A stretch of DNA of 64,000 nucleotides, taken from assembly GCA_027451365.1 (NCBI GenBank), contig DAIDJN010000042.1, forward strand, positions 1 through 64,000, given 5' to 3'. Source of the DNA: Phycisphaerales bacterium (lineage in GTDB: Bacteria > Planctomycetota > Phycisphaerae > WQYP01). The position numbers were made by a program, and so were the translations under genes. A model generated the notes under the pieces. It did no database searches and was not told the origin of the DNA. It saw nothing but the letters and a program-made list of their open reading frames with translations. Positions 1-54,602 of this stretch are shown here, piece by piece. The first letter of the stretch is position 1. The number at the start of each line of letters is the position of its first letter.

Positions 1-46
1 CGGCGCAGATCGCCTAATCGTGGCGGAGGAGCGGGCGAAAAATGCC

Positions 47-443
47 AGACGGTCTGTAAGCCGGGTTCTGTCCCCATCCTCGCGGACGCTGGACGGCCAT
101 TCATCTGGGACGCGCATTGCTGCGCGCCTCACGCGACCAACCCGGGCGACAAGGCGGAATCCCTTCGCGGCCATGATCGCTCACGCCGCCGGCCGCCCCT
201 ATTCGGTCTTGCTCCCGGTGGGGTTTTCCCTGCCGCTCCCGTCACCGGGACCGCGGTGCGCTCTTACCGCACCTTTTCACCCTTGCCGGCCAGGTTTCCC
301 CGGCTTAGGCGGTCTGTTTTCTGTGGCACTTTCCCGCGCCCGCAATGCGGACGGGTGGGCGTTACCCACCACCGTACCCTGTGGTGTTCGGACTTTCCTC
401 CCGGGAAATCTTTCAATTCACCGAGCGATCGCCCGACCATTCC
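47..443 (-). ncRNA. rnpB: RNase P RNA, bacterial type A
   Basis: The minus strand contains the universal motifs GAGGAAAGTCC, GAAAGTGCCACAGAAA, AAGGGTGAAAAGGTGCGGTAAGAGCGCACC and ACAGAACCCGGCTTA. Ends are approximate. Confidence 0.97.
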
Positions 444-682
444 ATTTATCATGCTACGGGATTCGCGGTTGCAATTCCACCGCGCCGCCGAGCCGCATTG
501 GGGTCTGCCTTTTGATTGTTTGTTAACTGCTGACAGAACATTCCTCAGGGGGCACTGTGAATGCCTGTCGGTCAACGTCATGCGGCTGATTCAGAATTGT
601 CGGGACTATTCAGCGATGCGATAACCTGGAGTCGCCACCGGCACATTGCAGGTGTATCTTCCGAATTATCAGGCTTGCCCGG

Positions 683-52619: not shown

Positions 52620-52862
52620 TCAGGGCGGATCATGAATTTCGGGATTCAGTTGAATCTGGCGATCTTCAATAGATTGATCATCCGACGGATCCAGCGGGCG
52701 CGACGTGTTGTATTTTCCATCCAGCCAGTTGCCGAGGTCCAGGAGGCGGCACTTGTCTGAACAGAATGGAAACGCGGGTTCCTGAACGTTGGCAACCGCC
52801 TTTTTACAGATGGGACAGCGAAAGCCACCGGAATGCTGGGAAGGACCGGCCTGTTTCATCAT
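52620..52862 (-). CDS. yacG: DNA gyrase inhibitor YacG
   Basis: CPICKK...FPFCSDKCRLLDLGNW. GAGG SD. Confidence 0.9.
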   Translation of the reverse strand: MMKQAGPSQHSGGFRCPICKKAVANVQEPAFPFCSDKCRLLDLGNWLDGKYNTSRPLDPSDDQSIEDRQIQLNPEIHDPP

Positions 52863-53276
52863 AACCTCTTTTTTATCGAACTTTGCCGCCTTTCGCGAGT
52901 GTTTTGGCAACCATCCATAATCCGCCTCAGGCGTGGCATATTTTACCAAAATCAACGGGTAGCGCAATATGGCGGGGCATTTTTAATTTGCGGACGATCG
53001 CGACCGCCTGATCGTTGGAAAATCACTCCTCAGGAATGGTACCGCAATTACCTCCCGATTTGCACTGCAATCGGATGGTCTATTGTGAGGGTTCTACCAC
53101 TGACAAGCTGGCGGCTATGTGAAATATAGCGCTCCATTTTTGACGCCTCGTGGTTCCGGCCTATTCCAATTGGAAAAATTATTCCGGCCCGGTTCCTTGG
53201 CGCCTTAGGTGCGACAGCAGAAGGTCAAAACTAGGGGAACACGCCCCTTTATGTCGCCGGTTGAAGCGTGCGTAAT

Positions 53277-53306
53277 AAAAAAAGTCGGCAGTATAAGGCC
53301 GACCTT
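53277..53306 (-). terminator. Rho-independent terminator
   Basis: The minus strand reads GTCGGC-CTTATACT-GCCGAC followed by T7. Confidence 0.8.
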
Positions 53307-53510
53307 GAATGGGGCAATAATAAAGCCACCGCGTGTGTGGAAAGCGACCGTGAGCCGCCTGTCTGCACCGCCAACCGTATGGGCGCTTGTCATAGCGACT
53401 CAGGGCCACTTAGCGGTCGCGTTCGGATTGGCCAATCAAGGCCGCGTCAAAGACGCATCGTACGAACCCGTACAAGACAATCCACAGATGCGACCTGCGG
53501 TGGCTACATT
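53277..53510 (-). ncRNA. Candidate structured non-coding RNA of unknown family (about 230 nt primary transcript, 182-nt closed core)
   Basis: Has its own promoter and terminator, a 9-bp closing stem (53497-53505 with 53324-53332) and several nested helices, one with a G-U wobble. No credible ORF. Confidence 0.65.
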
Positions 53511-53514
53511 TATC

Positions 53515-53563
53515 AGTGTATCCATAAAATCTGACAAAGCAAGAAAAAAGAATAATTTTTTTT
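53515..53563 (-). promoter_or_regulatory. Sigma70 promoter TTGCTT-N16-TACACT with an A/T-tract UP element
   Basis: -10 at 53515-53520, -35 at 53537-53542, and AAAAAAAATTATTCTTTTTTC immediately upstream. Confidence 0.65.
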
Positions 53564-53714: not shown

Positions 53715-54602
53715 TCAGTCGCAATTCGACGATTCCGGCGGCAGGCGGATATCGTGACCATGGGCCGCAATGTCGGAATCCAGATCGATGGCCGGAGGTT
53801 GATCAATCCGGGTAAAGGCAAGATACCGCACCAGGCAGGCAATGGTGACCAGGAACAGGGCGCTGGTTTTGACGGTCCCCAAGCCGAATCCGCCGACCGA
53901 GTGATGCTGGGAAAGCAGGTCACCAAGGGATGCGCCCAGCGGCCGGGTGAGGATATAGGCAATCCAAAACGCCGCCACGGCGTTGAGTTTGAAAAAATAA
54001 TGAGCGATTGCCACCAGGCCGATGGCTCCGGCGAAAATGAATGTGGAATTCAAATATCCCCATTTTAAACCTTCTGAAAGCAGGTCCCCGCCGGACGTTC
54101 CCAGCGCAAAGGTGAAAAGAATGGTCAGCCAGTAAAATGTTTCACGGCGTGTGGTAAAAATGGTGTGAATGGAAAGCGTTCTTTCGCGAAAATACCAAAT
54201 GCTGAACGTCGCGACCAGAGCGATAGAAAACAGAGTTGTGGTTACCTGCAGGGGAACGCCAAGATTGTCCACCAGGTTATCGCTGATAAGCGTTCCGACG
54301 ATGCTTATCAATACCACAACCAGCCAATAGATGGATGGAATATATTTTTTGGCGCGAAACTGGAAGAACATGACAACCAGCAGCACCATCGCCATAACCA
54401 GTCCTGTGTACCCTTCCCCAAGCTTTAATTTTTCACTAAGCAGGTCGGCCGCGGTTTCGCCCACAGTGGTGGCCAGTACCTTAATAATCCAGAACAAAAT
54501 GGTGACCTCGGGCACCTTGTTCAACATGTGTTGGCCGTTGGCGGGCCTCATCGGGGCCCGGGTGATTTCATGGTGTTTTTGTTGAATTCTATGCAGATTC
54601 AT
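53715..54602 (-). CDS. COG4705/DUF347 repeat membrane protein
   Basis: Motifs KVPEVTILFWIIKVLATTVGETAAD, REtFYW..IL.TFALGT..GD and FWIAYILTRPLGASLGD. Confidence 0.85.
   Translation of the reverse strand: MNLHRIQQKHHEITRAPMRPANGQHMLNKVPEVTILFWIIKVLATTVGETAADLLSEKLKLGEGYTGLVMAMVLLVVMFFQFRAKKYIPSIYWLVVVLISIVGTLISDNLVDNLGVPLQVTTTLFSIALVATFSIWYFRERTLSIHTIFTTRRETFYWLTILFTFALGTSGGDLLSEGLKWGYLNSTFIFAGAIGLVAIAHYFFKLNAVAAFWIAYILTRPLGASLGDLLSQHHSVGGFGLGTVKTSALFLVTIACLVRYLAFTRIDQPPAIDLDSDIAAHGHDIRLPPESSNCD

Follow-up and report, generated by a model that had tools for sequence, protein, structure and literature searches.

A structured RNA gene kept across an order of Phycisphaerae and its possible descent from a leader of the polyamine gene speY

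The question raised by this locus was whether the minus strand around positions 53277 to 53563 of the window (i.e., the whole 64,000-nt stretch of DNA that was analysed, belonging to a genome of 93% completeness referred to as G000) encodes an RNA of its own, and if so, which fold it adopts and where it came from. A reading made from the letters alone had proposed an orphan RNA of ~180-230 nt with a stable-RNA-type promoter, two pseudoknots and a switchable helix. The window RNA is a real RNA gene, with a fold other than the one first proposed. With a probability of about one half, we read it as a stand-alone stable-RNA gene that descended from an attenuator of speY and now probably binds protein; the RNA is predicted to start near 53508 and would measure ~185-190 nt up to the U-tract after helix P1.

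Promoter, boundaries and fold of the RNA

The following features were assigned at the locus by folding, pairing probability and comparison of homologues.

53715..54602, minus strand: DUF347 membrane protein, the neighbour upstream; its place next to the RNA is not conserved
53543..53563, minus strand: UP-element-like A/T-rich tract; T-rich tracts lie 5' of the -35 hexamer in most homologues
53537..53542, minus strand: -35 hexamer TTGCTT; family consensus TTGCAT/TTGCTT
53515..53520, minus strand: -10 hexamer TACACT; 16-nt spacer to the -35 hexamer
53497..53505, minus strand: P1 5' strand AGCCACCGC; near-invariant
53490..53495, minus strand: P2 5' strand GGUCGC; pairs with 53420-53415 in 39/39 distinct homologues
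53421..53489, minus strand: domain I, with degenerate internal loop, P3 and three hairpins (four-way junction); from fold and comparison
53415..53420, minus strand: P2 3' strand GCGACC; from pairing conservation and probability
53342..53414, minus strand: junction GCUAA and rod domain, the rod holding P7a (GUGG..), P7b (UGAGUCGC/GCGGCUCA), an internal loop ending ..AGA-CAG, and P8 (GCGCC/GGUGC); from fold and alignment
53333..53341, minus strand: pyrimidine-rich single-stranded junction 5' of the P1 3' strand
53324..53332, minus strand: P1 3' strand GCGGUGGCU; C-G to U-A changes at positions 7 and 9
53314..53323, minus strand: U-rich tract, predicted RNA 3' end; conserved in 40/40
53277..53306, minus strand: second intrinsic terminator (hairpin and U-tract), lineage-specific and not conserved, insulating the downstream gene
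52620..52967, minus strand: downstream neighbour yacG (DNA gyrase inhibitor family)

All sequences named in the sequence-only reading were found where it had placed them, i.e., the A/T tract, TTGCTT (53542-53537), the 16-nt spacer, TACACT (53520-53515), the 182-nt core (53505-53324, closed by AGCCACCGC/GCGGUGGCU) and the hairpin at 53306-53277. The promoter at 53515-53542 was not listed by a consensus promoter scan of the window. Across the homologues described below, the pattern TT[G/C]NNN-N15-19-TANNNT was present 8-10 nt 5' of P1 in 38/40 (TTGCAT in 22, TATACT in 20; 16-nt spacer in 31/38; 9 nt to P1 in 32/38), which bears out the claim that the structured RNA has a promoter of its own. The hairpin at 53306-53277 had been taken for the terminator of the RNA; it was not conserved in a nine-sequence alignment, the conserved end being the U-tract straight after P1, where each of the 40 homologues has 5-8 U within the first 8 nt. 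The 157-aa open reading frame overlapping the RNA on the plus strand had no Pfam match. In the spacer between the RNA and yacG (window 53020-53200, minus strand), ~97 nt resemble G000:C34:66737-66833 (75%, E 4e-12), i.e., a small repeat or a gene remnant.

Folding of the 232-nt minus strand gave z = -4.5, with 0/200 shuffles equally stable. Pairing probabilities in the window were 0.99 for P1, 1.00 for P2 (GGUCGC/GCGACC), 1.00 for UGAGUCGC/GCGGCUCA, 0.99 for GUACG/CGUAC and 0.84 for P3, and the GCGUC and GGCC hairpins were part of the MFE fold. All of these helices other than P2 and P3 had been proposed before and were retained; the proposed GCGACCG/CGGUCGC and CGCAUC/GAUGCG, however, had probabilities of about 0, and forcing both costs 13.6 kcal/mol. 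Likewise, GCGACC does pair with GGUCGC, but the switch built on it had to be given up, as a 6-bp downstream rival occurs in 1/39 distinct homologues, namely in the window only.

From 5' to 3', the homologues of the host order share P1 of 9 bp, a single nucleotide, P2 of 6 bp, domain I, which is branched, a short junction, a long rod whose tip varies, a junction rich in pyrimidines, and the second strand of P1 with the U-tract behind it. Among 39 distinct homologues, P2 was fully paired in 39 and P1 in 38; double changes were seen at four positions of P1/P2, each limited to one genus, and included a U-A to C-G change in P2 of 6 homologues of one genus. Covariation was checked on a 25-sequence alignment, in which 98% of cells were paired and 8/20 pairs showed double changes (0/500 shuffles as high), a score that is inflated since the alignment was fitted to the structure model and kin are not independent. 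A loose pattern for the internal loop of the rod (YYG-RRN..NNA-CAG) was found with both sides in 24/39, the window copy having the 3' side only. Multi-hairpin expansions of the rod tip, with unchanged core, were noted in three long homologues of 282-336 nt (L083:1848-2153, L084:1989-2324, L086:1886-2167).

The two pseudoknots proposed earlier did not withstand comparison. UGUGGA/UCCACA reaches 6 bp in the genus of the window only, and across 16 genus representatives the cognate segments scored 3.06 vs. 3.06 for permuted ones; GACAA is limited in the alignments to G000 and G001. A two-state RNA with both pseudoknots, perhaps a ribozyme, that is processed from a 230-nt precursor would account for the complementarities present in the window, of which UGUGGA/UCCACA is common to the same-genus copy. 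Nothing pointed to a ribozyme. Complementarity is not in excess across genera, however, both pseudoknots would disrupt P3, the alternative fold carries the above cost, and the downstream terminator is not conserved, which makes this the least credible of the accounts considered here.

Support for transcription came from metatranscriptome runs that had been picked for containing this stretch: three of the six listed had a small part of the 1-kb query in common, and in three of the four examined, from three studies, contigs of 157-164 nt lay wholly inside 53330-53498 (depth 4.6, 8.2 and 113.8). They carried 2-4 differences from the window, i.e., they stem from relatives, and the three listed variants all fell on unpaired positions. 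The contigs ended at 53330-53338, a weak hint on the 3' end. In the flanking 3 kb, no comparable contig was found, with two short partial matches in run X1 running into unlike sequence. The fourth run, X4, gave no cover of the stretch, a negative that carries no weight. This pattern fits a discrete abundant RNA, strand, ends and level lying outside the information held by contigs. The length of 230 nt suggested at the outset, with the terminator at 53306 as the end of the family, is not supported.

Distribution in the host order and comparison with known RNAs

Covariance models recovered one full-length copy each (175-336 nt) in 40/45 genomes of the host order; RNase P RNA, searched for comparison, was found in 42 of the same 45. 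The RNA occurs in 16/17 genera of the family, which makes up the whole order in the database used. Its retention in this uncultured order of Phycisphaerae is thus about equal to that of RNase P RNA, so that the cells probably need something it does. BLAST retrieved it from 8/60 relatives, and no paralogue was found within G000. A pattern scan of GTDB yielded 20 loci, and a promoter-anchored scan gave 28 matches among the 80 of 114 loci tested, in both cases all titled Planctomycetota or Phycisphaerae. Chance matches were all that a looser GTDB pattern produced (80/120 loci tested, best 23.5 bits); there was no match in the 80 of 116 metagenome loci tested, and none that was credible in the 19 + 4 viral loci checked. 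The long-form models gave one weak match in 130 genomes of the class and none in 150 of the phylum, i.e., no credible one, negatives that weigh little because a short form was present there (see below).

As had been proposed, the family is uncatalogued: no Rfam match was obtained at the window region or in the long and short homologues (9 + 18 loci). Over the whole window, the sole Rfam match was an RNase P RNA at 42-444, and ARAGORN found nothing. G000 has SRP, tmRNA, 5S and two RNase P genes over cut-off, all away from the RNA locus, so the window RNA is additional to these canonical genes. As a side observation, the two RNase P RNA genes are both full and divergent (window 42-444, minus strand, and G000:C44:17043-17498, minus strand; 263.5 and 258.4 bits, over cut-off), the sole double case among 45 family genomes. 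The window copy is short (403 nt) and over its first 250 nt shares 87% identity with the same-genus copy, whereas the other shares 74% over 431 nt. The second gene may have arisen by duplication or transfer, or may reflect an error of binning.

6S RNA is similar in size (~185 nt), in its paired ends and strong promoter, and in being a single-copy gene linked to one downstream, but the window RNA is branched and its closing stem has only 9 bp. RF00013 did not match at the locus, where a long rod with central bubble is missing. A divergent 6S-like locus lies at G000:C26:124484-124687 (L010; 31.5 bits, under the Rfam cut-off), and similar sub-threshold matches were seen in 23/45 family genomes; a permuted 6S RNA was rejected as well. 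SRP, RNase P, tmRNA and 5S were dismissed for lack of a match at the locus and presence of the canonical genes elsewhere; an expanded 5S rRNA and an RNase P remnant were rejected too. Bacterial Y RNA, next to which the Ro60 gene usually lies, was rejected since no PF05731 (Ro60/TROVE) was found in G000 (93% complete) or in the 46 neighbour ORFs scanned.

A strongly diverged housekeeping RNA of one of these kinds (second 6S, SRP, 5S, RNase P remnant, Y RNA) would explain the near-universal single copy, the stable-RNA-type promoter, the paired ends and the three-way junction. We hold it to be very improbable, given the genes present elsewhere in G000 (including the 6S-like locus), the missing Ro60/TROVE, the lack of Rfam matches in window, long and short homologues, and a minimal form of 60 nt that is too small for those folds.

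A minimal form ahead of speY in the sister order

The label of orphan does not fit the RNA: in 28/40 host-order genomes, a deoxyhypusine-synthase-like gene lies 3' of it, and in a sister order the same RNA family leads this gene. The downstream gene matches NCBIfam NF002699 (1,9-bis(guanidino)-5-aza-nonane synthase; 588 bits vs. a cut-off of 500), and we take it to be speY. SpeY couples two agmatines into a homospermidine precursor (PMC13625781); riboswitches and planctomycetes go unmentioned in the accessible part of that paper.

The minimal form was found by searching 5' of speY in other Phycisphaerae (family f6). It has a promoter directly 5', followed by AGCCACC, P2, the loop GC-AAUG-GCGG/CCGU-A-GC, a variable hairpin, GGUGGCU and a U-tract, i.e., a terminator-like hairpin of 60-140 nt with a near-invariant internal loop. 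It was present in 99/141 sister-order genomes (96 of the 99 at E below 1e-5), a lower bound since the model, built from 12 sequences, missed two expanded copies; the tally takes in one unpublished genome, on which no conclusion depends. The 12 sequences showed double changes in 5/19 pairs (4/500 shuffles as high). L489, a record titled Phycisphaerales bacterium, also has the minimal form. The extraction pattern fit 76 of the 79 loci inspected, and the loop letters of these were AAUG in 71 and GAUG in 5, partly forced by that pattern. speY followed directly 3' in 73 of these 76, the other three ending at contig edges, and in 59/62 loci obtained from the RNA model alone. By a rough pattern, the distance between the hairpin and the Shine-Dalgarno-led start of speY was at most 50 nt in 29/73, down to 19-30 nt, a space that would hardly accommodate a second promoter other than one overlapping the DNA of the hairpin.

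Outside f6, 29 loci of the class had no such element upstream of speY/DHS-like genes, and neither had 71 loci with distant homologues of these genes, except for L489. Over 151 genomes of the phylum, the short-form model matched in 7 (E 1e-4 to 5e-3), over 31-79 nt only.

Short and long forms are homologous as judged by their sequences. The minimal form, too, begins with the AGCCACC of the P1 5' strand, and its P1 3' strand lines up with the first rod strand of the long form. A few members of the sister order have a CCACC strand further downstream with which GGUGG can pair instead, the two sides having changed in step; what follows P2 in these members can be aligned to the first strand of the host-order rod. 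A model made from the sister order only picked up the RNA locus of three host-order genomes, G002, G018 and G009; it did not match the copy of the window itself, so that the link between this copy and the short form runs through other host-order members. The AAUG/A loop motif of the minimal form is kept in 16/39 host-order RNAs and lost in 23/39, the window copy being among those without it: the family version is RAUG/A, and the window has AUCUGU/GAAC in this internal loop of domain I.

Twelve of the 40 host-order copies, including that of the window, have no speY downstream; they have other neighbours, or lie near a contig end in two cases, and in three (G001, G016, G025) the downstream gene is convergent. 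In 9 of the 12 genomes, G000 among them, speY is found elsewhere with no full element upstream (in G000 on another contig, at G000:C70:62698-63825, where the RNA is not upstream). No close speY was found in G009, G016 and G025, all of which keep the loop motif; this is hard to square with an aptamer that serves polyamine feedback alone. G011, a family member of 92% completeness, yielded neither the RNA nor speY, possibly a joint loss.

The main rival to the reading given at the outset is a trans-acting small stable RNA in both orders, with the loop as the place where a protein binds and speY transcribed along with the RNA only because its terminator leaks, much as ygfA is co-transcribed with 6S RNA in E. 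coli. The strong promoter and U-tract in both orders, the 12/40 detached copies and the loop kept in three genomes with no close speY are what it would lead one to expect; moreover, trans RNAs can keep their position, and synteny cannot settle cis vs. trans, as the accessible part of PMC2965389 warns. It is less easily reconciled with the sister order, where the element was away from speY in 0/76 loci and, being missing 5' of speY in 6/20 sampled genomes, had no detached copy in the 10 model-negative genomes tested, i.e., a cis pattern. A core trans RNA would also not easily lose its most conserved loop, as 23/39 host-order copies did. We regard this rival as possible, though clearly on the doubtful side.

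A window copy that is still a cis attenuator or riboswitch and now controls yacG was also considered. yacG lies downstream on the same strand, and an alternative fold is possible, as the 5' strand of a truncated transcript pairs with the segment that follows P2 in 38/39 host-order RNAs (62% in shuffles). The second terminator and ~350 nt separate the RNA from yacG, however, the gene downstream of the same-genus copy is convergent, the window copy has lost the invariant loop, and the RNA contigs do not reach downstream; this account is unlikely. In other genomes, none of the neighbours scanned next to the RNA was yacG. The window copy is not a speY leader with intact loop, as speY lies on another contig without the element, the loop is degenerate and a second terminator stands before yacG.

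Proposed origin and parallels among known leaders

Our preferred reading, a stable-RNA gene descended from the speY attenuator, may be described in four steps, with a short-to-long direction of evolution assumed throughout. Step one would be the sister-order RNA, transcribed from the speY promoter as a single hairpin of P1, P2, the AAUG/A loop and P3 followed by the U-tract. Located directly before speY, the hairpin would itself be the terminator. A signal of the pathway would most likely be bound by the near-invariant loop and so determine how often transcription reads through into speY; homospermidine, its bis-guanidino precursor, agmatine or a protein are candidates. Hairpin and U-tract are general, a competing complement of at least 5 bp downstream, beyond the U-tract, being present in only 15/75 minimal forms and a covarying competing helix of 6-8 bp in only 9/75. 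For most members of the sister order, the search thus turned up no antiterminator, which counts against a simple switch. The short form is a riboswitch/attenuator candidate on account of its position directly before speY in 73 of the 76 loci.

In the second step, the helix by which a few members of the sister order draw GGUGG away from P1 would have become the rod of the host order, the long form closing with a second P1 3' strand further downstream and gaining the four-way domain and the long rod; homology is seen in the sequences, the order of events is one that we infer. The third step is the observed one, with the host-order RNA often uncoupled from speY yet kept in nearly every genome. 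In the fourth, the long form may act in trans as an abundant protein-binding decoy or scaffold, presumably contacting protein through P1/P2 and the internal loop of the rod. As its AAUG/A loop is missing, the window copy probably no longer senses the original ligand.

A bolder version, which we put forward tentatively and consider rather unlikely, is that the short form is a homospermidine-pathway riboswitch class in which the terminator hairpin is the aptamer, and that it escaped its operon in one order and grew into a core RNA acting in trans. If true, the 60-nt leader, the intermediate and the free forms of 175-336 nt would all still be present in living genomes. The host-order form would belong to a rare natural series from cis leader to free-standing stable RNA. 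Polyamine-sensing RNAs are a sparsely filled gap, and the short-form hairpin before speY can be tested directly with homospermidine, the bis-guanidino precursor and agmatine.

As for known parallels, strands similar to GGUCG..UGGCG and AGCGAC presumably occur in the ZTP (pfl) riboswitch; the minimal form differs from it in having no second hairpin for the pseudoknot and in a polyamine rather than purine/folate gene context. Models of the SAM-I-variant spermidine and ZTP (pfl) riboswitches were rejected, with no match at E up to 5 in 18 long/short loci, and the SAM-I and pfl models had no match on the window region at E up to 10. According to the accessible part of PMC10853860, earlier claims of polyamine-sensing RNAs were unconvincing, and one SAM-I variant is reported. 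This spermidine riboswitch likewise leads polyamine-biosynthesis genes and acts at an intrinsic terminator, but it sits before speD/speE/speB/ldcC with a separate terminator/antiterminator, whereas the short form is a single hairpin before speY; homospermidine or deoxyhypusine occur 0 times in the main text of that paper. The greA/GraL and rnk leaders and the Listeria trans-acting riboswitch, as cited in the accessible part of PMC2965389, are likewise terminated leaders able to act in trans. Leaders of the greA/GraL type remain attached to their gene, whereas a third of the host-order copies are separated, domain-expanded and still kept.

In the literature on planctomycete RNA motifs, deoxyhypusine-synthase/homospermidine riboswitches and speY, no title or abstract described the element; the short form could still be listed among motifs from large comparative screens that Rfam lacks. 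We rate the RNA family as uncatalogued and as working like known kinds (attenuator, stable small RNA), and the transition from leader to free RNA as unusual.

Further elements were observed near speY. Terminator-like extra hairpins lie between the RNA and speY in G007, G021 and G029. A recurring TCATGCAA(A/C)..TCACAATTT was found before speY in L396, L397 and L399 as well as in the RNA-speY spacers of G029, G002 and G032, and is possibly a promoter of speY itself or an operator. In L653 and L654 (family f11), a distant speY-like gene is preceded by a promoter, then by a shared hairpin (GCGGTATTACGA..TCGTAATACCGC-like) and more structure before the start codon, possibly a different candidate leader.
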